DNA of 64,000 nt, from assembly GCA_964636705.1 (NCBI GenBank), contig CAZWUJ010000013.1, positions 25,574 through 89,573 on the forward strand. Direction: 5' to 3'. Below are positions 5 through 51,283 of the stretch, piece by piece; the stretch's first letter is position 1, and each line of letters opens with the position of its first letter. The notes beneath the pieces were generated by a model, which was not told the DNA's origin, did no database searches, and was given only the letters and a program-made list of their open reading frames with translations. The position numbers and the translations under genes were made by a program. This DNA comes from an uncultured Vicinamibacteraceae bacterium. GTDB taxonomy: Bacteria > Acidobacteriota > Vicinamibacteria > Vicinamibacterales > UBA8438.

Positions 5-56
5 GGTCCGCCGGCGTCCACGCCGGCACCTTTGCCGGCCTGGAGGCCGGCGGACC
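5..56. repeat. Inverted pair of REP-like 23-nt hairpin units
   Basis: GGTCCGCCGGCGTCCACGCCGGC (5-27) and GCCGGCCTGGAGGCCGGCGGACC (34-56) are opposite-orientation copies of the unit that recurs at 20930, 33560, 36709 and 43388. Each unit has a 7-bp GC stem around a 4-nt loop. Confidence 0.8.
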
Positions 57-17563: not shown

Positions 17564-19364
17564 GCTCGAGGGTGATCCGCTCGCCGTCGCGGTCGACGAT
17601 CACCTCGGCAGGCTGGTCGACGCGGAGCAGATCGAGGGCGAACATGTAGTCGTAGATGTCGCCCACCTCGCGGCCGGCGAGGCTGACGATGACGTCACCC
17701 CCTTCGATTCCCGCTTCCGCCGCGGGACCTCCGGCGACGACCCCCGAGAGCGCGAGCCCCTCCGTTTCCTGCGTGTAATCCGGGATGGTGCCAGTATAGA
17801 TGCGCATCATCGCGGTGCCGCCCTGCTGTTCCTCGCGCTCCACCTCGACGAAGTCGGGCGGCTCCGGACGGAGGGCGAGGCTGCCGGTGACGGCGGCGGC
17901 GAGGTCGACGATCTTCGCGATGCCATCGTAGTTGAGCGTGTGCGCGTCGTCGCTCGGCCGGTGATATTCCTCGTGCGAGCCGGTGAAGAAGTTGAGGCTC
18001 GGGACGCCGGCGTCGTTCAGGCTGCGGACATCGGTCGGCAAGTACGGGTCGGCCACGAACGACAGCGTCAGTCCGACCGGCTCGTTGAGCTCCTCCACCA
18101 GATCGGTCCAGATGGAGCTGCTGCCCACCGCCTGCACGTTGACGGTGTTCTCGCGCAGGCGGCCCACCATGTCGAAGTTGAGGTAGGCGGCGATCTCGTC
18201 GGCCGGCACCAGCTCCCGCTCGACGAAGTCGTCGGAGCCGAGGAGTCCCAGCTCCTCCCCCGACCAGAACGCCAGGATGACGCCCCGGTCGCGCTCGACG
18301 GCGCCCATCCGCTCGCCGATCGCGAGGACGGCGGCGGTGCCGGACGCGTTGTCGTCGGCGCCGTTGTGGATCTCGCCCACTTCGTCGTCACGCGCCAGCG
18401 AATCGCCGCCGCGGCCTCGGCCCAGATGGTCGTAGTGGGCGCCGAGCAGGAGGTACGGCTTGTCCACCTCCGCGTCGTTGGTCGGCGGCAGCCAGCCGAT
18501 CACGTTGTGGCCGGTGCCCGGCTGCCGCTCCAGGCGGACGTCGAGTGACGCGCTAAGCGGCAGATCGAAGCCGGCGATGTGGGGGTTGGCGGTGTCGAGC
18601 TCCGCCTGCACCTCGGCGAGGGAGCGGCCGGCGCTCTCGACAATCGCGGCGCCGAGCGCGCCATCGACCGTCGCCGCGACCAGGCCGGCGTCGCCCATCG
18701 CGTTGTCGAAGGTGAGCGGCGCGAGTTCTCCCGCGTTGGGCGACGTCGGACCCGTCACCACGATCAGGCCCACCGCGCCGCGCTCGCGCGCCACGAACGC
18801 CTTGTTGCGAAGTCCCGCGACGCGCGACAGCTCGCCGCGTACGTCGCCCTCCGATTCCTCCGGAAAGTAGCGGAGGACGACGGCGATCTTTCCTTCGACA
18901 TCGAGGGTCGCGTAGCTGTCGTAGCTGAAGCCGTCGGCGGCCTCCGGAACCGACAGGCCGTAGCCCGCGAAGACGAGCGGCGCCTCGACGGCGGCGGTCT
19001 CGGAGAAGGCGAGGCCACGGACGGGCGAGCCCTCGCCGGCGGACGGAGCGGGCAACTCGACGGGCGCGCCGTCGGCATCGCTTAGCGCGATCGTGGTGCC
19101 GCTGTCCTCGATTCCCGACGTGAACGTGAACTCGTGGCGGTAGGCGTCGTAGCCCGGCAGCGGCTCGGCGCCGATCGACTGCAACTGGCCGATCAGATAG
19201 TGCGCCGCCATCTGCTCGCCCGTCGATCCCGTGAGGCGGCCTTCGTAGTCGTCACTTGCCAGGATCTCGACGACCGTCCGCGTGTCGTCCGGCGGGGGCG
19301 GGCCGCAGGCGGCCGCAAGGACGAAGAATCCAATCAGTGACCCGGCGCACGCGCGTGTTCTCAT
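17541..19364 (-). CDS. M28-family aminopeptidase with PA and C-terminal PDZ domains
   Basis: Metal ligand motifs 'LLLGAHYDHLG', 'DDNASGTAAVL' and 'SGEELGLLGS'. C-terminal PDZ region 'GGPAAEAGIEGGDVIVSLAG'. Confidence 0.85.
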   Translation of the reverse strand: MRTRACAGSLIGFFVLAAACGPPPPDDTRTVVEILASDDYEGRLTGSTGEQMAAHYLIGQLQSIGAEPLPGYDAYRHEFTFTSGIEDSGTTIALSDADGAPVELPAPSAGEGSPVRGLAFSETAAVEAPLVFAGYGLSVPEAADGFSYDSYATLDVEGKIAVVLRYFPEESEGDVRGELSRVAGLRNKAFVARERGAVGLIVVTGPTSPNAGELAPLTFDNAMGDAGLVAATVDGALGAAIVESAGRSLAEVQAELDTANPHIAGFDLPLSASLDVRLERQPGTGHNVIGWLPPTNDAEVDKPYLLLGAHYDHLGRGRGGDSLARDDEVGEIHNGADDNASGTAAVLAIGERMGAVERDRGVILAFWSGEELGLLGSDDFVERELVPADEIAAYLNFDMVGRLRENTVNVQAVGSSSIWTDLVEELNEPVGLTLSFVADPYLPTDVRSLNDAGVPSLNFFTGSHEEYHRPSDDAHTLNYDGIAKIVDLAAAVTGSLALRPEPPDFVEVEREEQQGGTAMMRIYTGTIPDYTQETEGLALSGVVAGGPAAEAGIEGGDVIVSLAGREVGDIYDYMFALDLLRVDQPAEVIVDRDGERITLELIPRARE

Positions 19365-19389
19365 CGTCGATCTCCCGCTGGTAGCGCGA

Positions 19390-22300
19390 TCATTCTTGCA
19401 CGGCGGCCGCGCCGGCGGCGACCGGGGCGGGCGGCAGCAACTCGACCATCTCGCCCGAGAGAGTGCTCACGCGCGCCCCGGGCGTAACGATGCCCGCCAG
19501 GTTCATCGGGTCGGCGGCGGCGACGCGAACCCCGCGGCCCTGATCGATACGGCCGCCGTCGCGGCGGACGATGCGCAGCAGCTCCACCGCGTCGGGCCGC
19601 GCGAACTGCTCTCCCACGAAGCCGGCGACGAAGCGGCCGCCGCGCACCTCGCCGCGGGCCTCCATCCGGCGGAGGGACGCAAGCAGATCGCGCCACGGCG
19701 GCATCAGTGTCTCGCGACGGACGAGGTCACGGAAGACGACGCCCCAGCGCAGCAGCAACTGGCGCGCGAAGGCATCGGCGCGCTCGCGTTCGGCGGCGCG
19801 GTCCGGTTGGGCGCCGGGGTCGCCGGCCGATGCGCCGGCTTCCGCCCCTGCCGCGGTTCCGGCCTGAGCGCCCGTGCGTCCCGGCGCGAGCAGCGCCCAG
19901 CGGCCCGCGGTATGACGCGGGCGGGCGGCGCGGAAGCGGCCCTCTCCGCGACGGCGCTTCGGGTTGGTCAAAGCCCGCAGGTTGTCGAAACCGTCGGCCG
20001 TAACGAGGCCGGCCGCGACCAGTTCCCAGAGTCCGTCCTCGACCTCGCTCGGCAACCGGCGCGTCTCCTGCACGAGCTCGCGAAGGAACGACGCGCCCCG
20101 CCGCTGGAGGGCATCGAGCACGGCCTGGGCGGGATGCGAGAGGACCGGCGGATGCGCATCCTCCCGATGGCCGCCGGGCGGGAGCAGCCAGTCGAGGTCT
20201 TCCCGCAGGAAGAGAGCGACTGGCGCGACGCGGGTGGGGCGGACGCGGCGCGCGCGGCCTCCGGCCGCCTCGCCGTTCTCGCCACCGTTCCGGGACTCGA
20301 AGGCCGGATGCGGCGACAACCGTCCCCACATCACTTCGCCCGACAGGCACAACTGGTCGAGCATCTCCGGGTCGTACTTCGCCATGCGGGCGGCAAGCAC
20401 GTCGCGTTCCCAGGCGGCGGCCGACACCTCGCAGCCCTGCAGTTGCTGAATCACCTGCAACAGGCCGGCGGCGCCGTGCAGCCTCGTCCCGTCCGAAAGA
20501 CGCTGCCAGCGCGCGAGGAAGCGGACGAGATCGGCCGACGTCACCGGTTCGATCTCGCGGCGGAGGCGGCCGAGGGTGAGGCGATGGATCCTCGCGAGGA
20601 CGCGCCGGTTGCACCATTCCGTCGGTGCCCCTTCGGCGCGGCCGGCCGCCGTGAAGCGGCCCCGGAGCACCTGGCCCTCGCCCTCGAGGCGGGTGAGCGC
20701 CGCCGTGATCCGATCCTCGGGAATGGCGAGAGTGGCGGCGAGGGCGGGCGCGGTCATCGGGCCCACCGAGTCGAGCCAGCCGCGCAGGATCTCGACCACG
20801 GCGGCGTCGGCGGTGTCCGGCGTCGGCTGATCGATGTCGGGAGGATCCGGATCGACGGCGGCGGCCGGGTGGACGAGGCGCGCGGTGCGGAGGCGTTCGG
20901 TGGCGACCCAGAAGGTGGGAGGTGCGGGTGCCGGCCTGGAGGCCGGCGGACCAGGGGCCGGCCTGGAGGCCGGCGGACCAGGGGCCGGCGTGGAGGCCGG
21001 CGGACCTTGTGCCGGCCTGGAGGCCGGCGGACCGGGGGGCGGACCGGTGAGGGTGGTGGCGCGGCCGGTGTCGGCGAGACTGGCGAACCATTCGCGCCAG
21101 GCGTCGCGCGGCGGGACGAGGATGAGCGTCAGCAGGGCGTCATGGAGCTCCTCGGGGTCGCGCACGACGGGCCATGCTTCGTCCGCCACCTCCCGGATCG
21201 CCGCCTCGTCGAGCGCGCCCATCTCGCCGCCGTCGTCCCCGAGCGTCCGGCGCAACTGGACGGCGCGCGCGCGGCGTTCCTCGAGCGGGGCATCGTCGAG
21301 GAAGGCGTAGGGGTTCGCGTTCAGAATCTCGTGGCCGAGGGGCGACGGTTCGGCCGTGTCGATGGCGTGCGTCGCGACCGTGCCGTCCTCGATGCCGGCA
21401 ACCAGGTCGCGCAATCCGTCGATGTCCATCGCCTCGTGCAGGCAGTCGCGGATGGTCTCGTCCACCAGGGGGTGGTGCGGGATCCGGATCTCGCCGCTCA
21501 GGTTCTCGGCGCACGCCACCTGGTCGGGGAAGACCGCCGCAAGGAGATCGTCGGATCGCATCCGCAGGATGGGCGGCGGCACCTTCTTGCCGCCCGCGAA
21601 GCGGAGGATGGCGAGGGAGCGCGACGCGTTCCAGCGCCAGCGCGCCCCGAACATCGGCGACGGAAGCATCGCCTGGGTCAGCACGTCCTCCACCGTTTCC
21701 GGATGCAGGAAGCGGAAGACCACCTCGAGGGGAAAGCTGTGCTGCTCGGCCAGCGAGATCACGAGGCCGTTGTCGGTGGCCGCCGCCTGGAGCTCGACGT
21801 TGAAGCTGCGGCAGAAGCGCTTGCGGAGCGCGAGCCCCCAGGCGCGGTTGACGCGGGCGCCGAGCGGTGCGTGCAGCACGAGTTGCATGCCGCCGCTCTC
21901 GTCGAAGAACCGTTCCGCAACCAACGTGCGGTTCGACGGCACCGCGCCCAGCACGCCCACGCCCGCCCGCACGTAGGCGACGGCCTGCTCGGCCCCGGAA
22001 CGGTCCAGGCCGCATTCCCGGACGAGAAACGCGACCGCATCATCGTCGGCGTCCGCCGCGGCAACGTGCTCACGGATGCGGGACACCTCGTCCGACAGCT
22101 CGCGCGTTCTCCCCGGCGCTTCTCCGAGCCAGAACGGCACGGACGGCGCGGCGCCGTGCGCATCCTCCACCCGGACGCGCCCCGCCTCGACCCGGCGGAT
22201 CCGCCACGATGTCGTCCCGAGCAGGAAGACGTCGCCGGCCAGGCTCTCGACGGCGAAGTCCTCGTCGACCGTTCCCACAGTCGTTCCCTCCGGCTCCGCC

Positions 22301-23820
22301 ACCACCTGGTAGTTGGCGTTGTCCGGGATCGCGCCGCCCGACGTGATCGCCGCCAGGCGCGCGCCGCGGCGGCCGCGCACGACGCCGTTCACCCGATCGC
22401 GGTGCAGCCAGGCTCCATTCCGGCCCCTCGACGAGGCGATGCCGTCCGACAGCATCGTCACCACCTCGTCGAATATCCCGCGCGGCAGGTCGCGGTACGG
22501 GTAGGCGCTCCGCACCAGGTCGAAGAGCTCGTCCTCGTTCCAGTCGCCGGCGCCCGCCGCCGCGACGACCTGCTGCGCCAGCACGTCGCGCGGCCACGGC
22601 ATCACCGTCCGCTCGTCGAGCAGTCCGCCCCGAATGGCGCTCACCAGCGCCGCGCATTCGATCAGCTCGTCGCGCGTCGCCGGGAAGAAGCGGCCCTTCG
22701 GGACGAACGCCCGATCCACCTTGTGGCCGGAACGGCCGATGCGCTGCAGCGCGACGGCGATCGAGCGGGGCGTGCCGATCTGGCAGACCAGATCGACCGA
22801 ACCGATGTCGATGCCGAGTTCGAGCGACGCGGTGGCGACGATGGCCCGGAGCCGTCCCTCCTTGAGCGCCGTCTCGGCCGCCTGCCGCAGCCGCCGGGAC
22901 AGGCTGCCATGATGCGACAGCACCGCGTCGTCGCCCAGGCGCTCCGCCAGTTGATGCGCCACGCGTTCGGCGAGGCGCCGCGTGTTGACGAAGACGATCG
23001 TCGTCCGGTGCGACAGGATGAGCTCCGCGATCCGGTCGTAGATCTCTCCCCACATGCCGGTCGTGGCGACGGCCCCCAGTTCTTCCTGCGGCGCCTCGAC
23101 CGCGAGGTCCAGTTCGCGGCGGTGACCCGAATCGACGACCGCGGTCTCGCCGCCGTCCACCTCCCCGGTGAGGAACGACGCGACCTCCGAGATGGGCTTC
23201 ACCGTCGCGGACAGTCCGATGCGCTGCGGGCGCGCGCCGCCGGTGGATCTCACGAGGTGGTCGAGCCGGGCCAGACTGATGGCGAGGTGCGCGCCCCGCT
23301 TGTCGTCCAGCACGGCGTGGATCTCGTCGACGATCACCGTCGTTGCGGTCGAGAGCATCGCCCGGCTCCGCTCCGCGGTCAGCAGAATGAACAGCGACTC
23401 GGGTGTCGTGACGAGGATGTGCGGCGGCCGCCGCACCATCTGCTCGCGATCCCAGGCCGGCGTATCGCCGGTCCGGATCGCGGTGCGGATGTCCGCCAAC
23501 TCGGCGCCGGACGCCTCCGCCAGCGCACCCAACTCCGCGAGCGGCTCCTGGAGGTTCCGGTGGATGTCGTTGCTGAGCGCCTTGAGCGGCGAGACGTAGA
23601 CGACCGAGGTCCGATCTTCCAGCCGCCCTTCGAGCCCTTCGGACACCAGGCGATCGATGCAGCTCAGGAACGCCGCCAGCGTCTTGCCCGAGCCGGTCGG
23701 GGCCGAGATCAGCAGGTCGCTCCCCTCCCGGATCAGCGGCCATGCCTCCGCCTGAGCTGGCGTCGCCTGCCCGAACTTCCCCCTGAACCACTCCGCCGTC
23801 AGCGAACAGAAACCGTCCAT
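19390..23820 (-). CDS. lhr: ATP-dependent helicase Lhr (large DEAD/DEAH helicase)
   Basis: 'ATPAQAEAWPLIREGSDLLISAPTGSGKTLAAF', 'VIVDEIHA' and 'HHGSLS' are visible, and the length is about 1480 aa. Start is either ATG 23820 or GTG 23832. Confidence 0.9.
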   Translation of the reverse strand: MDGFCSLTAEWFRGKFGQATPAQAEAWPLIREGSDLLISAPTGSGKTLAAFLSCIDRLVSEGLEGRLEDRTSVVYVSPLKALSNDIHRNLQEPLAELGALAEASGAELADIRTAIRTGDTPAWDREQMVRRPPHILVTTPESLFILLTAERSRAMLSTATTVIVDEIHAVLDDKRGAHLAISLARLDHLVRSTGGARPQRIGLSATVKPISEVASFLTGEVDGGETAVVDSGHRRELDLAVEAPQEELGAVATTGMWGEIYDRIAELILSHRTTIVFVNTRRLAERVAHQLAERLGDDAVLSHHGSLSRRLRQAAETALKEGRLRAIVATASLELGIDIGSVDLVCQIGTPRSIAVALQRIGRSGHKVDRAFVPKGRFFPATRDELIECAALVSAIRGGLLDERTVMPWPRDVLAQQVVAAAGAGDWNEDELFDLVRSAYPYRDLPRGIFDEVVTMLSDGIASSRGRNGAWLHRDRVNGVVRGRRGARLAAITSGGAIPDNANYQVVAEPEGTTVGTVDEDFAVESLAGDVFLLGTTSWRIRRVEAGRVRVEDAHGAAPSVPFWLGEAPGRTRELSDEVSRIREHVAAADADDDAVAFLVRECGLDRSGAEQAVAYVRAGVGVLGAVPSNRTLVAERFFDESGGMQLVLHAPLGARVNRAWGLALRKRFCRSFNVELQAAATDNGLVISLAEQHSFPLEVVFRFLHPETVEDVLTQAMLPSPMFGARWRWNASRSLAILRFAGGKKVPPPILRMRSDDLLAAVFPDQVACAENLSGEIRIPHHPLVDETIRDCLHEAMDIDGLRDLVAGIEDGTVATHAIDTAEPSPLGHEILNANPYAFLDDAPLEERRARAVQLRRTLGDDGGEMGALDEAAIREVADEAWPVVRDPEELHDALLTLILVPPRDAWREWFASLADTGRATTLTGPPPGPPASRPAQGPPASTPAPGPPASRPAPGPPASRPAPAPPTFWVATERLRTARLVHPAAAVDPDPPDIDQPTPDTADAAVVEILRGWLDSVGPMTAPALAATLAIPEDRITAALTRLEGEGQVLRGRFTAAGRAEGAPTEWCNRRVLARIHRLTLGRLRREIEPVTSADLVRFLARWQRLSDGTRLHGAAGLLQVIQQLQGCEVSAAAWERDVLAARMAKYDPEMLDQLCLSGEVMWGRLSPHPAFESRNGGENGEAAGGRARRVRPTRVAPVALFLREDLDWLLPPGGHREDAHPPVLSHPAQAVLDALQRRGASFLRELVQETRRLPSEVEDGLWELVAAGLVTADGFDNLRALTNPKRRRGEGRFRAARPRHTAGRWALLAPGRTGAQAGTAAGAEAGASAGDPGAQPDRAAERERADAFARQLLLRWGVVFRDLVRRETLMPPWRDLLASLRRMEARGEVRGGRFVAGFVGEQFARPDAVELLRIVRRDGGRIDQGRGVRVAAADPMNLAGIVTPGARVSTLSGEMVELLPPAPVAAGAAAVQE
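20930..21045. repeat. Four REP-like units with 27-nt period inside the lhr ORF
   Basis: Units lie at 20930-52, 20957-79, 20984-21006 and 21011-33, with a partial GGCGGACC at 21038-45. They are translated on the minus strand as 'GPPPGPPASRPAQGPPASTPAPGPPASRPAPGPPASRPAPAPP'. Confidence 0.85.
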
Positions 23821-23888
23821 CGCGTCCCCCACAGTCTACGCCGGGCCGCCCCGCCGCCATCCGGACCCTTGGAACAAGAGTAGGATGG

Positions 23889-30708: not shown

Positions 30709-33543
30709 ATGCCTTCAGCGTCAGGCGTCGGCCCGAACGTGGAGGAGCGTGTCCTCGACGTCATTGCCGAGCTGGCTGGCGAGTTGCGCGGCGGGGCGGA
30801 GGGCGGCGCGGTTGAGGTCAAGAGCGGCGACTCGCTGGAACGCGACCTCGGAATCAGCAGCCTGGAACGGGTAGAGCTGCTGATCCGCCTGGAGCGCAGT
30901 TTCGGCATCCGCCTGGGCGACGACGCCATGATGGCGGCGGAGACGCCGGCCGACCTGGCCGCGGCCATCGCCCGGGCCGCTGCCGCGCCGGCCGTCGCGA
31001 AGACGCCTGCTTCCGGGGTTGGCGCGCTCGGGGAGGCGGCGCCCGCCGCCGAATCGAGAGTCGCCACTCCCTCGGCGGAGGGCCCGCCGGCGCATGCGCA
31101 GACCATTATCGAGGCGCTTGCCTGGCACGTCGAGCGGACGCCCGACCGCGTCCACATGCACCTGCGCGAGGACGACGGCAACGAGGTCACGCTGACCTAC
31201 GGCTGGCTCTGGGACGAAGCCCGCGCCGTGGCCGGCGGTCTGACGGCGCGCGGCCTCGGACGGGGCGACCGCGTCGCCCTCATGCTCAGAACCGAGCGGG
31301 CGTTCTTTCCCACCTTCATCGGGACGCTGATGGCGGGCTGTGTTCCCGCGCCCCTCTACCCGCCGTTCCGGGCCGACCGGATCGAGGAGTACGCGGCGCG
31401 GCAGGTGGCCATTCTCCGCAACGCGGGCGCGCGGCTCCTGGTCGCGTTCGCCGAGGTGCAGCGCGTGGCGGCGCTGCTGAAGCAGCAGGCGCCGTCGCTC
31501 GAGGCGGTCGTCGGAACGGACGAGCTCCCGGGCGAGGCGCGGCGCCCGGTCCCGACCACGGGAGACGACCCCGCGCTCATCCAGTACACCTCCGGCAGCA
31601 CCGGCGAGCCGAAGGGCGTCCTGCTCACCAACGCCAACGTGCTGGCCAACATCCGGGCCATCATCGAGCGCCTCGGCTTTGCAGGGAATGACGTTGGCGT
31701 GAGCTGGCTGCCGCTCTACCACGACATGGGGCTGATCGGCGCCTGGCTGGGCACGCTCTACACCGGCGCGCCGCTCGTGCTGATGTCGCCGCTCGCGTTT
31801 CTCGCGCGTCCCGTCCGCTGGCTGCAGGCGCTCTCCACGCACCGCGGCACCGTCTCGCCGGCGCCCAACTTCGCTTACGACCTCTGCGTGTCGCGCATTT
31901 CCGATGACGAACTGGACGGACTGGATCTGCGCTCGGTACGCACCCTGCTCAACGGATCCGAGGCGGTCTCGCCCGACACGCTGCGACGCTTCAACGAGCG
32001 GTTCGCACCGTACGGACTCGATCCGACGGCGATCCTGCCCGTCTACGGCCTTGCCGAATGCACGGTCGGACTCGCCACGCCGACGGTTGGAACGCCGTTC
32101 CGGATCGATCGGATCGACCGGGAACGCTACGAGTTGTCAGGCGAGGCGGCAGCGGCGGCAGCGGACGACGCCCACGCGCTGGAGTTCGTCTCGTGCGGCC
32201 GGGTGCTGGCAGGCCACGACATGGCGGTGGTCGACGACGCGAACGCCCGGGTGCCGGAACGCCGCCGCGGCCGAATCCGATTCCGCGGCCCATCGGCAAC
32301 ACGGGGCTACTTCCGCAACCCGGAGGCGACCAGCACGCTGATCGGCGACGACGGCTGGCTCGAGACGGGCGACGTCGGCTACATCGCGGACGGCGATCTC
32401 TTCATCACCGGCCGTTCGAAGGACCTGATCATCAAGGCCGGCCGCAACCTCGCGCCGCCCGAAGCAGAAGAGCTGGCCAGCGCCGTCGACGGCATCCGCG
32501 CCGGCTGCGTCGCCGCCTTCGGCGTGCGCGATGAGGCACGGGGAACCGAACAGTTCATCGTCGTCGCAGAGACTCGCGTAACCGATGCCAAGGCGCGAAC
32601 CACACTCCGCCAGGCAGTGAACCGGGCGATCACCGGCGCGATGGGCGTCGCCCCGGATCGGATTGTGCTGGCGCCGCCGGGATCGGTCCTCAAGACGTCG
32701 AGCGGCAAGATTCGCCGCGGCGCAACGCGCGACGCCTGGCTCAGCGGAGCCATCGACCGGGGCCGCTCCAACATGGTGGCTCAGTGGATCCGCCTCGGGG
32801 CCGGGGCGGCGGGCGCGATGGTAGGCCGGGTAGCCGGACGCGCGGGACACATCCTTTTTTCCGGCTATGCCTACACGCTCGTGTTCGGCACCGCCATCCC
32901 CGCTTCGGTGCTCCTGCGGTTCTGGCCCCGCAGCCGGCCATCGGATGCGCTCATCGGCCGCTGGACGCGTTTCGTAATGGCGCTCACGCGATGCCCGATC
33001 GACGTGGTGATGCCGGAAAGCGGACGGATCGAGCCGCCCGTCGTCTTCGTCGCCAATCACGCCAGCTTCCTCGATCCGCCGGTGATGATGGCGACTCTGC
33101 CGGTCCCCGCCCGTTTCGCGGCCAAGGCCAAGCTAGCGCGCTATCCGGTGGTCGGCCCCGCGATCCGCAAGGGCGGCCACATCCGCCTGCACAAGACGGA
33201 TCAGGCCCAGCGCATCGAGGATGCGGGCACCATCCGCGGGCCGCTCGACGCGGGCGAGGCGCTCTTCGTCTTCCCCGAGGGAACCTTCGAGCGGGCGCCG
33301 CGCCTCCTCCCCTTCCGGCTCGGCGCCTTCCGCGCCGCCGTCGACGCCGGCTGCCCCATCGTCCCCGTCGCCATCCACGGCACCCGCTACATCTGGCCCG
33401 CCAACACGCTGCTGCTTCGACCCGCCCGCATCACCGTCACGTTCGGAGAGCCGCTACACCCGCGGGGAACCGACTGGTCGGAGATCGTGCGCCTGCGCGA
33501 CGAGGCGCGAGCCTTCATCTCCACGCACTGCCGCGAGCCCTAG
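30709..33543 (+). CDS. Tri-domain ACP / fatty-acyl-AMP ligase / lysophospholipid (PlsC-type) acyltransferase
   Basis: Carrier-protein site 'DLGISSLERVELL', adenylation motifs 'IQYTSGSTGEPKGV', 'YGLAECT' and 'GDVGY...GRSKDLIIKAGRN', and acyltransferase motifs 'ANHASFLDPP' and 'FPEGTF'. Confidence 0.8.
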   Translation: MPSASGVGPNVEERVLDVIAELAGELRGGAEGGAVEVKSGDSLERDLGISSLERVELLIRLERSFGIRLGDDAMMAAETPADLAAAIARAAAAPAVAKTPASGVGALGEAAPAAESRVATPSAEGPPAHAQTIIEALAWHVERTPDRVHMHLREDDGNEVTLTYGWLWDEARAVAGGLTARGLGRGDRVALMLRTERAFFPTFIGTLMAGCVPAPLYPPFRADRIEEYAARQVAILRNAGARLLVAFAEVQRVAALLKQQAPSLEAVVGTDELPGEARRPVPTTGDDPALIQYTSGSTGEPKGVLLTNANVLANIRAIIERLGFAGNDVGVSWLPLYHDMGLIGAWLGTLYTGAPLVLMSPLAFLARPVRWLQALSTHRGTVSPAPNFAYDLCVSRISDDELDGLDLRSVRTLLNGSEAVSPDTLRRFNERFAPYGLDPTAILPVYGLAECTVGLATPTVGTPFRIDRIDRERYELSGEAAAAAADDAHALEFVSCGRVLAGHDMAVVDDANARVPERRRGRIRFRGPSATRGYFRNPEATSTLIGDDGWLETGDVGYIADGDLFITGRSKDLIIKAGRNLAPPEAEELASAVDGIRAGCVAAFGVRDEARGTEQFIVVAETRVTDAKARTTLRQAVNRAITGAMGVAPDRIVLAPPGSVLKTSSGKIRRGATRDAWLSGAIDRGRSNMVAQWIRLGAGAAGAMVGRVAGRAGHILFSGYAYTLVFGTAIPASVLLRFWPRSRPSDALIGRWTRFVMALTRCPIDVVMPESGRIEPPVVFVANHASFLDPPVMMATLPVPARFAAKAKLARYPVVGPAIRKGGHIRLHKTDQAQRIEDAGTIRGPLDAGEALFVFPEGTFERAPRLLPFRLGAFRAAVDAGCPIVPVAIHGTRYIWPANTLLLRPARITVTFGEPLHPRGTDWSEIVRLRDEARAFISTHCREP

Positions 33544-33559: not shown

Positions 33560-33690
33560 GGTCCGCCGGCCTCCAGGCCGGCCTTGGTGCTCCCGCATTG
33601 GTCCGCCGGCCTCCAGGCCGGCACGGTTCCCACGGTCCGCCGGCCTCCAGGCCGGCACGGTTCCCACGGTCCGCCGGCCTCCAGGCCGGC
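33560..33690. repeat. Array of four REP-like hairpin units
   Basis: GGTCCGCCGGCCTCCAGGCCGGC occurs at 33560-82, 33600-22, 33634-56 and 33668-90, with spacing 40, 34 and 34 nt. The spacer ACGGTTCCCAC is repeated. The array starts 16 nt after the stop of the tri-domain gene. Confidence 0.85.
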
Positions 33691-33738
33691 ACTAGCTCCT
33701 CCGAAAGCTCCTTGAAGAGACCGAGGATTCGCTCGCGA

Positions 33739-36659: not shown

Positions 36660-36708
36660 CGCGGGTATCCGTTCATTCTCATGCTACTCGATCGCCGATT
36701 CGCCGACT

Positions 36709-36856
36709 GCCGGCCTGGAGGCCGGCGGACCGACGGAATGCCGGTCTGGAGGCCGGCGGACCGACGGAATGCCGGTCTGGAGGCCGGCGGACCGACGGAA
36801 TGCCGGCGTGGACGCCGGCGGACCAGTAAGAATGCCGGCGTGGACGCCGGCGGACC
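36709..36856. repeat. Array of five REP-like hairpin units (31-32 nt period)
   Basis: Units lie at 36709-31, 36740-62, 36771-93, 36802-24 and 36834-56. The spacer GACGGAAT repeats three times. Stem variants are GCCGGTC/GGCCGGC (T.G) and GCCGGCG/CGCCGGC (compensated). The array ends 1 nt before the topoisomerase B stop codon (36858-36860). Confidence 0.9.
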
Positions 36857-36857: not shown

Positions 36858-38813
36858 CTAGACGTCGAGGTCGAGGGCCTGGTCGGCCCGTTCCATGATG
36901 AAGCGGAAGCGGGCTGACGGGTCCTTGCCCATGAGGTTGGCGATCACCCGGTCGGTGCGGTGCTGATCGTCGACGGCGACGCGCAGCAGGCGGCGGGTCT
37001 CGGGGTTGAGCGTGGTCTCCCAGAGCACCTTCGGCATCATCTCGCCGAGCCCCTTGAAGCGCGTGATCTCGGGGTTGCCGCGGCCGTTGTTGCGGGCGTT
37101 GACGATGGCGTCGCGGTGGGCGTCGTCGAGCGCCCAGTGGGTCTCCTTGCCGATGTCGACCCGGTAGAGCGGGGGCTGGGCGAGGTAGACCTTGCCGTGC
37201 GCGATCAATTCGGGGAGGAAACGGTAGAAGAAGGTGAGCAGCAGCGTCGCGATGTGGTTCCCGTCGGAGTCCGCGTCGGCCAGGATGATGATGCGGTCGT
37301 AGCGCAGCCGGTCGATATCGAACGTCTTGCCGATGCCGCAGCCGAGCGCGGTGACGAGGTCGGACAGCTCCTTGTTCTCGAAGACCTTCGACGGGGCCGC
37401 GCTCTCGACGTTCAGCACCTTGCCGCGCAGTGGGAGGATGGCCTGGCGCGTCCGGTCGCGCCCCTGCTTCGCCGACCCGCCGGCGGAGTCCCCCTCCACG
37501 ATGAACAGCTCGCTCCCGCCGCGCGCGCTCCCCGTGCAGTCGCTCAGCTTGCCCGGCAGGTTCAGCCGGTTGGTGGTGGCGCTCTTGCGCGTGACCGCCT
37601 GCTGCGCGGCGCGGCTCGCCTGCCGCGCCCGCGCGGCCAGGATGATGCGGGCGACGATGGCCTCGGCCGAGCTGATGTTGTGGTTCAGCCAGTGCTCCAG
37701 TGCGGGACGGATGGCGCCGTCGACAATCGGGGCCAGCTCGGGGTTGTTCAGCCGGTCCTTGGTCTGTCCCTGGAACTGCGGGTCCAGCAGGAAGACGCTG
37801 AGCACCCCGGCCAGTCCTTCCCGGATGTCGTCGGCGGTGAGCGCCACGCCCTTCGGCGTGAGGTTGTGCGTCTCGATGAAGTTGCGGACCGCCTTGCCCA
37901 GTCCCGCGCGCAGTCCGGTCTCGTGGGTGCCGCCGGAGCCGGTCGGGATGCCGTTGACGTAGCTGCGGAACCGCTCGTCGGTCGCCTCGGTCCAGCGCAG
38001 CGCCACCTCGATGCGCGTCCCGCTCTCGGCATGGTCGCGCTGGAGGACGAACGCGGCGTCGTGCACCGGCGCGGCGTCCATCTCCTTGACGATCCGGGCG
38101 AGATAGTCGGGCAGCCCGTCGTCGTGGCGGAACTTCTCCTCGGTCCCGCGCGCCTCGTTCTCGAAGATGAACTCGACGCCACCGTGGATGTAGCTCGCAA
38201 TCTCGATCCGCTCCCGGAGCAGCGCCTCGTCGAACGCCGTCTTCGGAAAGATGCGCGGGTCGGGCCGGAACCGGACGGTCGTGCCGGAGCCGCGCGCCGC
38301 CTTCACCCTGGCGAGCGGCCCGGCCGGCTTGCCGCGCCGGAACGTCTGCCGCCACAGCGCGCCGTCGCGCTTCGACTCCGCCACCAGCTCTGCCGACAGC
38401 GCGTTCACGACGCTGGCCCCGACGCCGTGCAGGCCGCCCGCGGCCCGGTACGACCCGTTCCCGAACTTCCCGCCGGCGTGCAGCGTCGTGAAGATCACCT
38501 CCAGCGCGCTCTTGCGGCTGCCCTTGTGCTGATCCACCGGGATGCCGCGGCCGTCGTCCGACACCGTGATCGCCGACCCCTTCGCGTGCAGCGTCAGGCG
38601 CACCTGCCGGGCATGGCCGTTCATCGCCTCGTCGACCGCGTTGTCGAAGATCTCCCAGACCAGGTGGTGCAGGCCGGCGGGTCCGACGCCGCCGATGTAC
38701 ATCCCGGGCCGCTTGCGGACGGGCGCGAGGCCTTCGAGAACGGTGATGTCCTTCGCCGTATATGACTGCGCCACGGTCCTGTCCGTCCGGAGGGGGGATC
38801 CGAAGCTTACCAT
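36858..38813 (-). CDS. Type IIA topoisomerase subunit B (GyrB/ParE family)
   Basis: 'LEGLAPVRKRPGMYIGG', 'GLHHLVWEIFDNAVDEA', 'DDGRGIPV', Toprim 'ELFIVEGDSAGGSAKQGRDR' and 'IIILADADSDGNHI'. Confidence 0.9.
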   Translation of the reverse strand: MVSFGSPLRTDRTVAQSYTAKDITVLEGLAPVRKRPGMYIGGVGPAGLHHLVWEIFDNAVDEAMNGHARQVRLTLHAKGSAITVSDDGRGIPVDQHKGSRKSALEVIFTTLHAGGKFGNGSYRAAGGLHGVGASVVNALSAELVAESKRDGALWRQTFRRGKPAGPLARVKAARGSGTTVRFRPDPRIFPKTAFDEALLRERIEIASYIHGGVEFIFENEARGTEEKFRHDDGLPDYLARIVKEMDAAPVHDAAFVLQRDHAESGTRIEVALRWTEATDERFRSYVNGIPTGSGGTHETGLRAGLGKAVRNFIETHNLTPKGVALTADDIREGLAGVLSVFLLDPQFQGQTKDRLNNPELAPIVDGAIRPALEHWLNHNISSAEAIVARIILAARARQASRAAQQAVTRKSATTNRLNLPGKLSDCTGSARGGSELFIVEGDSAGGSAKQGRDRTRQAILPLRGKVLNVESAAPSKVFENKELSDLVTALGCGIGKTFDIDRLRYDRIIILADADSDGNHIATLLLTFFYRFLPELIAHGKVYLAQPPLYRVDIGKETHWALDDAHRDAIVNARNNGRGNPEITRFKGLGEMMPKVLWETTLNPETRRLLRVAVDDQHRTDRVIANLMGKDPSARFRFIMERADQALDLDV

Positions 38814-38821
38814 GCGCCCCG

Positions 38822-41170
38822 TCAGCCTCCGTTCAGCGCCGGCACCGTAACCGGCCGCGGCACGACGCGGGTGAAACCGCCCCGCTGCGTCAGCTCGCGT
38901 CCCTTGCCGCCCCGGCCCACGACCTCGTACTTCGCGGTGCTGATGTTCTGGGTGGCGCCACGGTCCGTCTCGACCGTCAGCAGGTCGCGGGCGCCGGACG
39001 ACGCGACGAATCCGATCACCTGGTCCCCATCCAGCAGCCGGATCAAGCGCACGCCCTTGCCGGGACCCGACAGGAAGTTGACCTCGCGCGCCTGGCAGAG
39101 GATGGCGCGTCCCTGGCGGGTGGCGGCGATCAGCACTTCGTTTCCGTTCATGGGGACGACCCCCAGGACCTCGCTCTTCCCCGCCGGCCGCGCGAACCTG
39201 CGGCCCGCCCGCGTGCTCGGCTCGGCGAACGGCGCCAGGCTGAACCGCAGGCTGTAGCCGTCGGTGGTGACGGCCACCGCATGCGTGCGCGGCTCGGGCT
39301 GGTCCGGCGCGTCCGCGATGCCGGGGGCGAGGCGCGGGTCCAGGCTGAGCACCGACACCACCCGCTCGCCGTCCTTCAGCTTGAAGAGGCGCTGGATCGG
39401 CTCGCCGTAGCCGGTGGTGGCCGGGACATCGATCAGGCGGCACGAGTACGCCGTCCCGAAGTTGGTGAAGCAGACCATCACGGCGCGCGTGCTGCCGGCC
39501 ACGGCGGTCAGCAGGGCGTCGCCCTCGCGCAGCCGCGTCGCCGACGGGTCCTTGACTTCGCGCTGCCGCTTCACCCAGCCGTCGCGCGACACCAGGACAA
39601 CCGCGTTCTCGTCCACGATCAGGTCGTCCGCGCTGTAGGTCGCCTCGTCCGCGTCCGGCCCCTCGATCCGGGTCAGCCGCGGATTCAGCTTCGGGCCGCC
39701 ATAGGTCTTCCGGATCTCGACCAGCTCCTCGCGGACGATCGCCCAGCGGCTGTCCTCATCGCGGAGCTGTTGCGTGATCGTGTGGGCGCGGGTCCGCTTC
39801 TCCTTCAGTTCCTGCCGGATCAGGAGGATCTCGAGGCGCGCGAGCCGGTAGATTTTCAGCTCCAGGATCGCGTCGGTCTGCTCGGCGTCGAGCGGGAACC
39901 GCTCCATGATGCGCTTCGCCGCGTCCGCCTTCCCCTCCGAACGCCGGATCAGCGCGATGATCTCGTCCAGCGCGTCGAAGACCAGGGTGAAGCCCTCCAG
40001 CAGGTGGATCCGCTTCGTGAGGGCGGCCAGCTCGTGCTCCAGCCGTAGAGTCACCACATCCAGACGGAAGTGGAGGAAGTGGCTGAGCACGGCCTTCAGG
40101 TCGAGCCGCTCGGGGCGTCCGACGCCCGCATGCTCGGTCGGCACGAGGCACGTGAGGTTGACCGGGAAGGTGGACTGCAGCGGCGTGTGGCGGAAGAGGT
40201 ACGCCATCACCTTCCGCTCGTCGGCATCCCGCTTCAGCTCCAGCTCGATCCGGACGTCGTCGGTCGAGACGTCCTTCACGTCGAGCAGATGCGGCAGCTT
40301 CCGGCCGATCACGACCTCGGCGATCCGCTCGACCAGTTGCGCCTTGTTGACGCCGTAGGGCACCGACGTGATGTGGACCGTCTTCGACCCGCGGTGCGCC
40401 CGCGCCGGCTCCCAGGTCGCCCGGATCCGCAGGGTGCCCGCGCCCGTCACGTAGATCTGCCGTAGCTCGTCCGCGGTGTTCACCAGCGTCCCGCCGGTCG
40501 GGAAGTCAGGTCCCTTGACCCAGCGCGCCAACTCGGCGCTCGTCAGTTCGAGGTTGTCGACGAGATGCACGAGCGCCGTCGAGACCTCGCCCAGGTTGTG
40601 GGGCGGGATGTTGGTCGCCATGCCGACGGCGATGCCGGTGGCGCCGTTCACCAGCAGGTTCGGCATCCGCGCCGGCAGCACGACCGGTTCCTGCCGGGTG
40701 CCGTCGTAGTTGGGCTGGAAGGGGACGGTGTCCCGATCGATCTCGGCCAGCAGCTCGGCGCTGATCGGCGCGAGGCGGCACTCCGTGTAGCGCATCGCCG
40801 CGGCGCCGTCGCCGTCCAGCGATCCGAAGTTGCCGGATCCGTCGATGAGCGGCGCGCGCAGGGTGAACGGCTGCGCCATCCGGACCAGGGTGTCGTAGAT
40901 CGCGGTGTCGCCATGCGGGTGGTAGCTCCCCATCACGTCGCCCACCACCTTCGCGCACTTCCGCGGCTTCGCATCGGCGCGGAGCCGCTGCTGCCACATC
41001 GTGTAGAGGATGCGGCGCTGCACCGGCTTCAACCCGTCGCGCACGTCGGGCAGCGCCCGCGACGTGATGACCGACAGCGCGTAGTTGAGGTAGCGCGACT
41101 CCGCCGCGGCGTCGAGGCTTACGACTTCGTCGCGGCCGCCCCGGCGCGCGAGAAGGTCCATCTGAGTCAT
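38822..41170 (-). CDS. Type IIA topoisomerase subunit A (GyrA/ParC family, ParC-like signatures)
   Basis: '[32 protein letters not shown]', 'HPHGD' and active-site 'AAMRYTE'. The gene lies 8 nt upstream of the B subunit. Confidence 0.9.
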
Positions 41171-41906: not shown

Positions 41907-41953
41907 GGTAGGACACCTAATCTTACTGCGGCCCGCACCGACAGTTCCTCGCG

Positions 41954-43375
41954 ATGAGCGACAGCGACACGGGCCGACCCAAACGAACCTTCGATCGCGC
42001 GATCGTCGAGGGCCCGCTTCCCCGCGCCGTCTGGCGCATCGCCTGGCCCACCATGCTGCAGAACGTCATTGGCGGGATGCAGGGGATCATCGACCAGGCG
42101 ATGGTCGGCAACGTCGTGGGCCACATCGGCAACGCGGCGATCGGCGTCAGCACCCAGATATTCATCCTGGTGATCGTCTTCGTCGCCTCCGTCTTCAGCG
42201 GGATGGGGGTGCTCGTCGCCCGCTTCGCCGGCGCCAACGATTCCGACAAGGTGAACCGCGTCGTCTACCAGGCGTTCCTCACCGCGGTCGTGATGTCGCT
42301 GCTGATCCTGGCGCCCATCGGCTACGTCGCGGCGCCGGCGCTGCTCGCGATGGTGAACGCGGCGCCGGAGGTCCAGTCCGAAGCCCTGCCCTACCTCCGC
42401 ATCATGTTCGTGTTCAGCATCGGCATGCTGATCTTCTTCATGATGAGCGGCGCGCTCCGCTCCGCCGGCGATGCCCGGACGCCGCTCCGCCTGGGCGTGG
42501 TGATGACCGCGCTCAACATCGTGCTGAACGTCATCCTGATTGGCGGACTGGGTCCGATTCCGGCGTTCGGAACCATCGGGGCGGCGATGGGCACCGCGAT
42601 TGCGACCGGTGCGACCGCGCTGGTCTTCCTCTGGCTGCTCTTCTCGGATCGCCTCGTCGTCCACTTCTCCTGGCGGATGTCGTTCGCGCCCGACTGGCAG
42701 ATCATCCGCGAGCTGTTCCGCTTCGGCCTGCCGACCGGCTTCCAGGGGATCGTGATGAACATTGCCGGCCTGCTGCTCATCCGGTTCGTCGGATCGCTCG
42801 CCCAGAGCGCCGAGGCCCAGGCCGCCTATGCGGTCGGCTACACGCAGCTCTTTGCTCTAATCACCTGGACGTCGGTCGGGCTGATGGCCGCCACGGCGGC
42901 GGTGGCGGGACAGAACCTGGGCGCGGGCCGGCCGGAGCGAAGCACGCGCGCCGCGGTGGTCGCCGCCGGTTACGGCGTGGGTGGCGCGGCTGCGATCGGC
43001 GCGGCATTCCTGGCGTTTCCAGGTCCGCTGCTCGCCGTCTTCGGCATGACCAGCGGGCCGGCGTTCGACCTGGGACGGCAACTGCTCGCGTACCTTTCCA
43101 TTTCCGCCATCTTCGTCACCGTCGCGCTCATCTACACCGGCGGCCTGCAGGGGACCGGCGACACGCGGAGCCCGCTCTACATCTCGATCGTCTCGCAGGT
43201 GATCATTCCGATTGGCCTCTGCACCTACCTCCAGGCGACCACCGGCCTGGAAGCGTCCGACATCTGGCTGGCGATAGTGCTGGGCCATGTCACCCGCGCC
43301 TCGCTGAGCGTCGCCCGCTTCCACCAGGGCAAGTGGCGCGACATCGCCGTCGACATCGGACCGGCGCGGGCGTAG
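41954..43375 (+). CDS. MATE-family efflux transporter
   Basis: 473 aa with about 12 TM segments. 'LPRAVWRIAWPTMLQNVIGGMQGIIDQAMVG' is a typical MATE N-terminus. Confidence 0.85.
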   Translation: MSDSDTGRPKRTFDRAIVEGPLPRAVWRIAWPTMLQNVIGGMQGIIDQAMVGNVVGHIGNAAIGVSTQIFILVIVFVASVFSGMGVLVARFAGANDSDKVNRVVYQAFLTAVVMSLLILAPIGYVAAPALLAMVNAAPEVQSEALPYLRIMFVFSIGMLIFFMMSGALRSAGDARTPLRLGVVMTALNIVLNVILIGGLGPIPAFGTIGAAMGTAIATGATALVFLWLLFSDRLVVHFSWRMSFAPDWQIIRELFRFGLPTGFQGIVMNIAGLLLIRFVGSLAQSAEAQAAYAVGYTQLFALITWTSVGLMAATAAVAGQNLGAGRPERSTRAAVVAAGYGVGGAAAIGAAFLAFPGPLLAVFGMTSGPAFDLGRQLLAYLSISAIFVTVALIYTGGLQGTGDTRSPLYISIVSQVIIPIGLCTYLQATTGLEASDIWLAIVLGHVTRASLSVARFHQGKWRDIAVDIGPARA

Positions 43376-43387: not shown

Positions 43388-43410
43388 GGTTCGCCGCCCT
43401 CCAGGCCGGC
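43388..43410. repeat. Single degenerate REP-like unit
   Basis: GGTTCGCCGCCCTCCAGGCCGGC lies between the MATE stop and the next gene. The left stem arm is degenerate. Confidence 0.5.
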
Positions 43411-43452
43411 ATTGGATCGGCCCCGTTCCCTCCGGTATACACTCCCGCTCCT

Positions 43453-44610: not shown

Positions 44611-44649
44611 GGAGCCCGACCGCCTGTCCGCCTGAGGAAACTGACCGCC

Positions 44650-45895: not shown

Positions 45896-46132
45896 GTCGT
45901 TACCTCTCGAACCGGAAGCCGGTCATGCACATGCTCGCCCGCCATCGAACGATACGCGAAATAGCAGGCAGCCCGGCACTCTGGTCCAGTGAACGCCCAG
46001 GCCGCACTGATCCTGCCGAGGTTTCGTTGCGATCCGGAACTGCGTCACTCAGGGTCGATGGTCGTCGCGGTAGGCTCCTTCCCCGCTGTTTGCTCTGCTG
46101 TGCCGTCCTGAGACGCGACGCGGCGCGGCTCA

Positions 46133-50243: not shown

Positions 50244-50299
50244 CCGCTCCCCAAGCTCTCGCGGCCCGCGCCCGCAACAAGCTCTCCGCGCATCGCCAT
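50240..50299 (-). other. Possible 19-codon leader ORF overlapping the PHP-ATPase start (ATGA)
   Basis: ATGGCGATGCGC...GGATGA encodes 'MAMRGELVAGAGRESLGSG'. The first 11 nt and 22 upstream nt are shared with the small ORF at 57444. Confidence 0.3.
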
Positions 50300-50321
50300 G
50301 TCACAACGATAGCCGATGCCG

Positions 50322-50597
50322 TTATCTTGAGCGCCTTGCAAGGGATCGTTCGCGCTGAGTAGGCGTGAATCGCAACAGTGCACTCCGCCTCATGCAAACG
50401 ACGACCTTCTCGTCTCGATAGTCATCACCGGCTGCGGCCAGAGCATCCCGTCGATTGAACTCGAGCGCCTCAGCAAGAGCATCGGCAAGGCTCTGCCGCA
50501 ATTCCTCGTGGGTGCGTTCCTGGCAGTTGACGCTCGGCTCTTCGTTGACGCACGTCTCCTCGGTCTGTCCCTCCACGTGCAGCAGCAACCGGCTCAC
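50322..50597 (-). pseudogene. Chimeric ORF made of a DUF4276 N-terminal stub joined to a HicB/UPF0150-like fragment
   Basis: 'SRLLLHVEGQTEETCVNE' is the DUF4276 start. It is followed directly by 'CQERTHEELRQSLADALAEALEF', which resembles a HicB-type fold. Confidence 0.35.
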
Positions 50598-51080: not shown

Positions 51081-51115
51081 ACCGTCGCTGCGGACCTCCC
51101 CGGTGGTCGGGTAAG

Positions 51116-51263
51116 AGCGGTTGCGCCGTTCGTAGGCGACCTGGACGGGGCTCTGCGCGGACCGGTCCATCACCGACCGGAGCTCGGCCGTCGGGGTGTT
51201 CTTGCGCGACGCCTCCTCGTGCTTCAGAGTCGCGACGATCTTGTGGGACGGCCTCTTGGGCAT
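51116..51263 (-). pseudogene. N-terminal stub of a type III-like DNA methyltransferase
   Basis: 'MPKRPSHKIVATLKHEEASRKNTPTAELRSVMDRSAQSPVQVAYERRNR' resembles the conserved N-terminus of adenine-specific mod methylases. Homology stops after about 49 codons. Confidence 0.45.
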
Positions 51264-51283
51264 GCGGGCAGGACCACGGACGC

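Follow-up and report, generated by a model that had tools for sequence, protein, structure and literature searches.

Repetitive extragenic palindromes (REPs) are known to lie wholly within open reading frames (ORFs) in several species (Di Nocera et al. 2013, PMC3733652). More than half of the intragenic inserts are dimers or groups that encode 20-30 residues, intragenic clusters in Thauera and R. conorii encode 43-82 residues, and a striking share of the intragenic elements resides in genes for DNA synthesis and repair and for helicases, namely uvrA, uvrB, dnaE2, recBCD, HrpA and a DEAD/DEAH helicase (PMC3733652). The case described here is an array of 24-nt, hairpin-forming units that lies in frame within the lhr (large helicase-related) gene in a stretch of 64,000 nucleotides, hereafter the window, from an uncultured Vicinamibacteraceae bacterium of the phylum Acidobacteriota (GenBank assembly GCA_964636705.1, contig CAZWUJ010000013.1, positions 25,574 to 89,573 of the forward strand). 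The evidence is best compatible with a history, which we consider probable, in which a REP-type palindrome was inserted in the sense orientation into lhr in the ancestor of a small uncultured Acidobacteriota clade and then became an in-frame variable tandem repeat.

The codogenic REPs (PMC3733652) and the present element are alike in that both are short hairpins that are mostly intergenic, typically downstream of ORFs, and also occur in frame inside ORFs, where shorter homologues reveal the respective segments as inserts. In the present case, the element is found both between genes and inside an open, conserved ORF, relatives lack the segment, and the AlphaFold2 model places it in a surface loop. 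The differences are that the host belongs to the Acidobacteriota, a phylum outside the survey, and the gene is lhr, no Lhr protein being included in the table or the supplement of the survey; that the element has GT(C/G/T)C as its 5' tag and not GTAG/CGTC; and that the units form head-to-tail tandem arrays, which the survey calls rare (PMC3733652). Furthermore, unlike in the codogenic REPs, the orthologous site can be traced here through gain, expansion, decay and loss.

The palindromic elements of Rickettsia (PMC10969869, PMC1779305) are likewise both intergenic and inserted in frame into conserved genes, and are translated at fold-compatible positions. However, elements of the RPE-1 (Rickettsia palindromic element 1) type are about 100-150 bp long, AT-rich and single-copy, and belong to an obligate intracellular alpha-proteobacterium, whereas the unit described here is a GC-rich tandem repeat of 24 nt; unit length and GC content set the two apart, so that the relationship is one of analogy and not of membership. 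With the systems that combine REPs or REP doublets (REPINs) with a REP-associated tyrosine transposase (RAYT) (PMC3116915, PMC3337134, PMC8049555, bioRxiv 10.1101/2021.07.10.451892), the element shares a short palindrome, a conserved 5' tag and many copies, as well as an inverted doublet at window positions 5-56 and a consensus that persists across related genomes; a RAYT gene with inverted, identical 24-mers is seen on a metagenomic contig (L037). In contrast to these systems, most copies are arranged head to tail and not as inverted doublets, the tag is not GTAG, and no RAYT was found in the available source sequence. In-frame minisatellites, such as the mycobacterial loci of the MIRU (mycobacterial interspersed repetitive unit) type, have units whose lengths are multiples of 3 and which vary in copy number between close strains while the frame is kept. 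Unlike these, the unit in lhr derives from a dispersed REP hairpin, not from local sequence, and no surface or antigenic variation is involved.

Given that translated intragenic REPs and Rickettsia palindromic elements have already been described, the lhr case is another instance of a known phenomenon; for specialists in bacterial repeats, the insert is well resolved and ordinary, and reveals no new mechanism. It adds a new phylum and the Lhr helicase to the little-studied translated REPs as a phylogenetically resolved case, and fits the previously unexplained frequency of such inserts in genes of replication and repair. With about ten related genomes and population variants at hand, the life history of the array becomes readable, from entry into a loop through expansion in multiples of 3 to decay, loss and an occasional break of the frame. 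For practical purposes, annotators and protein-family models will take the insert for a linker of low complexity, and mis-assembly or gene splitting is likely to occur at the array.

The in-frame array in lhr

The lhr gene of the window (Q in the pairwise comparisons) is an ORF of 1480 codons on the minus strand (19390..23832), identified from the ORF list, its translation, Pfam and PDB matches, G+C content at third codon positions (GC3) and the ratio of nonsynonymous to synonymous substitution rates (dN/dS); the annotated product, P0001, starts at Met5 and comprises 1476 amino acids (aa). The ORF matches DEAD, Helicase_C, WH_Lhr, DEAD_assoc, WH3_Lhr and WH4_Lhr of Pfam, all above the cut-offs, and the best PDB matches are 7lhl (E 1e-189) and 5v9x (E 1e-155). 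Thus, the protein has the layout of a full-length Lhr, that is, a core consisting of a superfamily 2 (SF2) motor, a winged helix and DEAD_assoc, followed by C-terminal winged-helix modules. The gene neighbourhood is conserved among the orthologous loci. The dN/dS of the window gene against each orthologue is 0.10-0.18 (0.10-0.14 inside the insert-bearing clade) at dS of 0.38-0.79; the parts of lhr that flank the insert are accordingly under purifying selection (dN/dS about 0.1). An antisense ORF of 1533 codons (window 19282-23883, plus strand) spans the whole of lhr and has no family support. It was rejected as a real gene, being best explained by the high G+C content; the GC3 of the Lhr frame is 0.89, and the antisense frame is a trap for gene callers.

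Tandem Repeats Finder detects an array with a period of 27 nt at 20930..21042 (4.2 copies, 89% matches, no indels, score 184). A scan with the 23-nt core GCCGGCCTGGAGGCCGGCGGACC at up to 3 mismatches finds 16 matches in the window, versus none in 100 dinucleotide-preserving shuffles, and the core copies in lhr start at 20930, 20957, 20984 and 21011. Both results agree with the first-pass annotation, which had described four 23-nt units at a spacing of exactly 27 nt. The 16 units occupy 6 loci in the 64 kb, and 12 of them are intergenic, so that within the window the element behaves as a dispersed, mainly intergenic family. A looser scan of the window with the 24-mer (up to 6 mismatches) yields no further credible units, which leaves lhr as the sole coding locus of the six.

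The array in lhr comprises four complete units of the 24-nt element plus a partial one. Its translation in the lhr frame is GPPPGPPASRPAQ...PAPAPP, and the ORF reads ...TLTGPPPGPPASRPAQGPPASTPAPGPPASRPAPGPPASRPAPAPPTFW... at residues 930-972. The first-pass annotation had given the extent as residues 930-967 or so; the ORF is indeed open, whereas the codon-level comparison with ten orthologues delimits an insert of codons 930-972 (GPPPGPPASRPAQGPPASTPAPGPPASRPAPGPPASRPAPAPP; 20917..21045, minus strand), and the fifth, partial unit has to be added. Compared with the empty-type sites of the orthologue L001 and the outgroup L064, the insert amounts to +39 codons. In the direction of transcription, it begins with the partial unit (21034..21045, minus strand; sense GGTCCGCCCCCC), where the sequence reads as a tag followed by a degenerate left arm that forms no hairpin. 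Unit 1 (21010..21033, minus strand; sense GGTCCGCCGGCCTCCAGGCCGGCA, encoding G P P A S R P A) matches the 24-mer without mismatches. Unit 2 (20983..21006, minus strand; sense ...GCCTCCACGCC...) carries a change at the loop-closing pair that replaces Arg with Thr and leaves pair 12-17 unpaired; this is the uncompensated stem change that had been noticed earlier in the unit at 20984, which reads GCCGGCGTGGAGGCCGGC and has a G-G mismatch at this pair. Units 3 (20956..20979) and 4 (20929..20952), also on the minus strand, complete the array.

The codon usage of the insert is dictated by the REP sequence and constitutes a foreign nucleotide signature. All three Arg codons inside the insert are AGG and all five Gly codons are GGT, compared with 3% and 5%, respectively, in the rest of lhr; GCA accounts for 33% of the Ala codons inside the insert versus 3% outside, and the GC3 is 0.72 versus 0.90. 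All six frames of a tandem of the REP unit are free of stop codons, so that the length of the insert alone decides whether lhr stays open. The intact ORF and the low dN/dS of its flanks suggest that the insert is translated; the predicted tryptic peptides from the array are PAPGPPASR and PAQGPPASTPAPGPPASR. Searching proteins for the peptide encoded by the repeat (GPPASRPAP...) gave no matches, probably as a result of composition filtering.

Structure and affiliation of the element

In the mRNA sense, the unit reads GGTCC-GCCGGCC-TCCA-GGCCGGC-A, i.e., a 5-nt tag, a 7-bp GC stem with a 4-nt loop, and a trailing A, for a total of 24 nt or 8 codons; the tag follows the pattern GGT(C/G/T)C. In an alignment of 17 distinct units from the window, its relatives and one metagenomic contig, 92% of the stem cells are paired, compared with 8-46% when the partners are slid against each other. 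Nine units have C-G at the loop-closing pair and five have G-C; this two-sided exchange amounts to covariation. Intergenic arrays fold more stably than shuffled sequences (z = -4.2 and -6.6), and so does the lhr array (-77.8 kcal/mol, z = -5.2); scans of the latter for Rfam families, terminators and promoters found none. As is expected of REPs, the unit is an imperfect palindrome in the range of 20-40 bp that forms a stem-loop.

L037, a metagenomic contig of 1248 bp (JGI Ga0194113_10290019), carries a gene scoring 99.7 bits against the NCBIfam model REP_Tyr_transpos (cut-off 80) and also matching Pfam Y1_Tnp. On both sides, this gene is flanked by inverted arrays of GGTGCGCCGGCCTCCAGGCCGGCA (period 54), a 24-mer identical to the unit in lhr of L002 and L007. 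This identity marks the element as REP-type and bears out the earlier suggestion of a REP-like element captured by a coding sequence; the affiliation carries caveats concerning the tag and the RAYT, L037 not being linked to the insert-bearing clade. L037 itself, with a RAYT gene between inverted flanking arrays, is a complete 'REPtron'.

A scan for the REP core in the GTDB representative genomes, a set that excludes the source genome and its close relatives, returned only two single, unrelated matches (Propionibacterium and Phycisphaerales). In JGI metagenomes, a degenerate form of the core matches 51 loci, mostly single copies in unrelated GC-rich contigs and many of them in unrelated ORFs; most of these are probably chance matches. 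The informative ones, along with L037, are 13 loci with the recurring variant GCCGGCGTGGACGCCGGCGCACC, which are mostly intergenic.

Position in the Lhr fold

The insert had been placed after the helicase core and ahead of the C-terminal region. The structure model and the alignment to M. smegmatis Lhr rule out a linker between the core and the C-terminal domain (CTD) and locate the insert inside the latter. Residue 833 marks the end of the Pfam DEAD_assoc match, a part of the Lhr core, and the motif FWVATER just after the insert aligns to about residue 965 of the M. smegmatis protein (7lhl). An AlphaFold2 model of residues 850-1180, computed with 55 homologues (mean predicted local distance difference test score, pLDDT, 79.7), contains three helices, a strand at 925-929, a coil at 930-972 that corresponds to the insert, and a strand at 973-977; the best structural match of this model is the Lhr C-terminal domain of 7lhl, followed by MarR-type winged helices. 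The insert is thus predicted to form the tip of the beta-hairpin wing in the first winged-helix module of the C-terminal domain, which is denoted WH2 in the nomenclature of PMC8053096. The contacts that hold the M. smegmatis tetramer together involve residues 915/917, 1100, 1149-1288, 1314 and 1366 (PMC8053096), a list that does not include the insert-aligned position at about 965. The length of the wing loop varies in other Lhr proteins as well, e.g., in P0118.

Lineage distribution, gain and loss

By its protein matches, the window belongs to uncultured Acidobacteriota. Alignment with orthologues had been proposed as a check of whether the roughly 40-residue insert is lineage-specific, and it is. 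In a MAFFT alignment of 120 listed Lhr homologues, the insert is absent from 110 of the 110 listed at 77% identity or less, which have a short turn at this position (e.g., RRAASLH-AGDAV-FWVATER, with a turn of 5 residues in the outgroup). A Pro-rich insert of variable length is found only in the closest proteins (83-100% identity; P0001-4, P0006-8 and P0010), and comprises from 0 to 5 or more units in this clade. Comparison of the DNA of ten syntenic orthologues shows that every insert-bearing gene holds recognisably the same element, always in the single reading frame G-x-P-A-S-R-P-A. The converse situation that the first-pass annotation had envisaged, a homologous Pro-rich segment encoded by unrelated DNA, was not seen, as the inserts of the close relatives consist of the same hairpin DNA.

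The orthologues differ in the state of the array. L005 contains two intact units, 33 nt apart; L002 has two intact units, the second of them compensated (GCCGGCGTCCACGCCGGC), and L007 a single intact unit. The units are progressively degenerate in L004, L062, L063 and L008, and only a barely recognisable remnant is left in L006. The outgroup L064 has the sequence CAC GCC GGC GAC GCG GTC TTC TGG (LH-AGDAV-FW), in which the ancestral Ala-Gly codons GCCGGC coincide with the outer 6 bp of the REP stem, a match that might have served as microhomology for the entry of the REP. L001 has no units (ACC GCC GGC GCA TCC TCA TTC TGG) and the same length as the outgroup. In a neighbour-joining tree built from 1408 gapless columns, L001 adjoins L002 and L004, at an amino acid distance of 3-4% and a dS of about 0.15, inside the insert-bearing clade. 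Because of this nested position, the empty site of L001 is best interpreted as a secondary loss, and a single gain at the base of the clade followed by loss in L001 is the most parsimonious scenario.

Repeat dynamics and frame-broken alleles

Within clusters of proteins with at least 90% identity, the site varies by -4 to +44 residues. The P0010 cluster includes proteins of 1504, 1508, 1533 and 1548 aa that differ only at the insert, by up to +44 residues of GAPAP/SAPTP repeats; the P0006 cluster ranges from almost no insert (P0279, LDAPAASLS) to +30 residues (P0280); and the pairs P0003/P0264 and P0008/P0242 differ at the insert by 12 and 4 residues, respectively. An allele of the P0010 cluster, L065 (ENA ERZ25067264, ctg818090), contains a 30-nt unit in 6.3 copies; the unit is built from left halves of the REP (GGTGCGCCGGCTCCCAGTGCGCCGACCCCT), and an intact REP follows at the 3' end.

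All periods observed in lhr, namely 27 nt (the window and L004), 33 nt (L005) and 30/15 nt (L065), are multiples of 3. Among the intergenic periods, which are 26 (L001), 31/32 and 34/40 (the window) and 54 (L037), this holds for one of five, the level expected by chance. The first-pass annotation had noted intergenic spacings of 31, 34 or 40 nt, all of which occur, along with one of 32, and had invoked selection on periodicity. The regular lhr periods are best read, however, as survivorship under purifying selection, and frame-broken alleles do occur. Two proteins of the P0010 cluster, P0287 (1080 aa) and P0288 (1039 aa), shift into REP frame 2 (VRRPPGRH) at two different points of the array, and both terminate where a TGA overlaps the start codon of Met ~1026 (ATGA), the remainder being called as an ORF of 477 aa. 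The frameshift in L065 is caused by a 4-nt deletion (TCCC) in the fifth unit. These breaks may be real alleles or errors of long-read assembly.

Split lhr genes that consist of an ORF of 1039-1080 aa and one of 477 aa are seen at L065:3001-7673 and in the pairs P0287/P0285 and P0288/P0289. Fragmented lhr products with frameshifts outside the array are present in the P0004 cluster (P0267, P0268 and P0273, on a contig of 21.6 kb); given such frameshifts in P0267 and P0273, some public long-read metagenome assemblies evidently contain indel errors. A phase-variable switch was considered and rejected, the unit lengths being multiples of 3 and the frameshift seen at the DNA level being a 4-nt deletion within a unit and not a change in unit number. 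A CRISPR array was discarded as well, the spacers being 3-16 nt long and repeating together with the unit instead of being unique.

Proposed history and alternative explanations

Taken together, these observations suggest the following course of events. A REP would have entered lhr in the sense orientation at the turn of the WH2 wing, a surface loop of variable length, where an insert length that is a multiple of 3 and the stop-free sequence of the element would leave the gene open. The G-P-P-A-S-R-P-A frame would yield a segment rich in Pro, Ala, Ser and Gly that the loop could tolerate. Slippage or unequal recombination may then have duplicated whole or half units, while purifying selection on lhr would have removed length changes that are not multiples of 3. 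Units would have decayed in some lineages and remained pristine in others, and one nested genome would have lost the whole array. Constancy of the family consensus has been described for REPIN-RAYT systems (PMC8049555; bioRxiv 10.1101/2021.07.10.451892). By analogy, we infer that propagation of the REPs keeps the consensus in this family, too, and that the units in lhr are occasionally refreshed by duplication or by conversion from the genomic REP pool and otherwise drift.

Several points weigh against this history or parts of it. The tag tetranucleotide GT(C/G/T)C (GGTCC, GGTGC, GGTTC) is not the canonical GTAG/CGTC of REPs; other tetranucleotides have been reported (GYAG, GYRG, GTRG, GTMG and GTGG; PMC3733652), and CGTC is found 5' of the tag only in the array with 31-nt spacing. 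No RAYT gene was found in the window or in the lhr loci, and no close homologue of the L037 RAYT was found that links this contig to the insert-bearing clade; any cognate transposase of the source genome is hence putative. The copy number of the array in the metagenome-assembled genome (MAG) is that of the assembled contig. For L001, a single clean deletion from an L002-like array is excluded, as the flanking codons do not fit one event. Neutral tolerance of the insert at the protein level is an assumption. Sequences rich in Pro, Ala, Ser and Gly tend to be extended and unstructured; the pLDDT of the insert (block means 74-86) is fairly high for a coil, so that disorder is not established. Finally, the best-preserved units are, in several pairs of lineages, far more conserved than the fourfold-degenerate sites of lhr. 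The best units of L002 and L007 show 0/24 nt differences at a fourfold-site divergence of 0.36 (P = 2.4e-5), and those of Q and L005 1/24 at 0.37 (P = 2e-4); the test takes the best unit per lineage, and the result holds when the best of up to four units is allowed. Selection that acts on the hairpin, instead of gene conversion, might underlie such conservation.

The last point bears on the possibility that the hairpins retain a function at the level of nucleic acid, for which they are selected within lhr, the peptide being a by-product. This function might be that of an mRNA structure between the Lhr core and the CTD that pauses ribosomes or protects from RNases, or that of a DNA site for a binding protein or a RAYT. 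Besides the identity of the best units across lineages with a fourfold divergence of 36-39%, such a role would account for the retention of the disfavoured AGG and GGT codons, for the strong RNA fold, and for the orientation to transcription, which lhr shares with all three of the window's one-directional intergenic loci. However, lhr is intact in L008, L063, L006 and L004 (units 2-3), where the hairpins are degenerate or absent, and L001 has none; the expanded units of the P0010 cluster are half-REPs, incapable of hairpin formation; of the nine stem cells counted as unpaired, seven belong to lhr units and not to intergenic ones; and the array contains neither a terminator-like site nor an Rfam match. 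The units of L002 and L004, moreover, diverge at about the synonymous rate (1/24 at 0.11), and this comparison, like those with L008 and L063, fits neutral decay. Direct selection on the hairpins inside lhr is hence retained as a minority alternative, which we regard as unlikely. An adaptive, length-tuned Pro-rich loop that acts as a flexible spacer or as a binding motif on the wing is compatible with the persistence of the insert through about 12% amino acid divergence of Lhr in most lineages, with the single frame of all units, and with a model of moderate confidence that does not look like noise. Nevertheless, the length (from about 0 to +44 residues) and the sequence vary freely within clusters of at least 90% identity, L001 lacks the insert and P0279 nearly so, the outgroups make do with a turn of 5 residues, and there is no conserved motif beyond what the REP nucleotides dictate, so that this explanation appears quite improbable.

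Equally doubtful in our estimate is the notion that the array is a live member of the REP population that is kept pristine by conversion or selection and makes lhr prone to fission. According to this idea, indels in the array would shift translation into REP frame 2, as in the P0010 cluster, giving rise to an Lhr-Core-like protein and a separately startable C-terminal fragment; provided that the frame-broken alleles exist and are expressed, full-length Lhr and stand-alone Lhr-Core forms would be able to change into one another by way of REP arrays. An assembly artefact might be suspected because the source is a MAG contig (P0001 has a single one, of 98 kb), tandem repeats are prone to collapse and expansion, and related long-read assemblies show the lhr frameshifts outside the array mentioned above. 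REP-derived inserts are present, however, at exactly the same codon in at least nine independent assemblies from different samples, including contigs of several Mb, the array measures about 117 nt, less than a typical short read, and the ORF is unbroken, all of which makes an artefact very hard to believe. The chance of an ordinary low-complexity region that came to resemble the intergenic repeat by accident or by compositional convergence is negligible. Variable loops rich in Pro and Ala are frequent in high-GC genomes, and the wing loop varies elsewhere (P0118), but the match to the dispersed intergenic copies is exact over 23-24 nt including the tag and the loop, with none expected, rare codons are dictated by the REP sequence, and lhr (L002) shares a compensated stem subtype with intergenic copies; the shuffle test and the codon usage effectively refute such an origin. 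Insertion of a REP in the ancestor of the clade, followed by in-frame turnover, thus remains the preferred explanation.

Intergenic copies and other features of the window

Two of the intergenic loci in the window are head-to-tail arrays. The first (33560..33691, plus strand) has four units starting at 33560, 33600, 33634 and 33668 (spacing 40, 34 and 34 nt), and is located in the sense orientation directly 3' of the stop codon of an AMP-binding/acyltransferase gene (30709-33543, plus strand). The second (36708..36856, minus strand) has five units starting at 36709, 36740, 36771, 36802 and 36834 (spacing 31, 31, 31 and 32 nt), follows the stop codon of gyrB (36858) closely in the sense orientation, upstream of a DUF433 gene, and combines two stem subtypes, with C-G and G-C at the loop-closing pair. 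A single degenerate unit (43388..43411, plus strand) is found directly 3' of the stop codon of a MatE gene (41921-43375, plus strand), again in the sense orientation. All three of these one-directional loci are thus situated just 3' of stop codons, with the same orientation to transcription as in lhr. An inverted pair of units, a REPIN-like doublet, precedes a HupE/UreJ_2 gene at positions 5..56; located at the very start of the window, this doublet contains one unit of each stem subtype, 5 nt apart.

The site downstream of the acyltransferase gene can be compared between genomes. It contains four units in the window, four in L001 (L001:246-347), one in L002 (L002:270-293) and none in L004 (L004:200-240). 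The units of L001 represent a different, compensated stem/loop variant (e.g., GCCGGCGCGGACGCCGGC) with a period of 26 nt. This site shows rapid turnover of REPs with preservation of the hairpin, the variants being genome-specific and compensated.

The remaining features concern other parts of the window. After about 46 kb, the G+C content falls from about 0.69 to about 0.60-0.67, and few ORFs in the 46000-64000 segment have the high-GC3 pattern; this may be a region of different origin. At 44592-44649, a 25-nt tandem repeat (2.3 copies) with TGA and GGAG/GGAA motifs (GACCGCCTGAGGA...) occupies a gene junction before the ATG at 44650 and looks like a duplicated junction of a stop codon and a ribosome-binding site. 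In the longest ORF of gyrB (36858-39443, minus strand, 861 aa), the ATPase domain starts only at residue 256, so that the true start is probably some 200 codons downstream of the first candidate, unless the protein has an unusual N-terminal extension.

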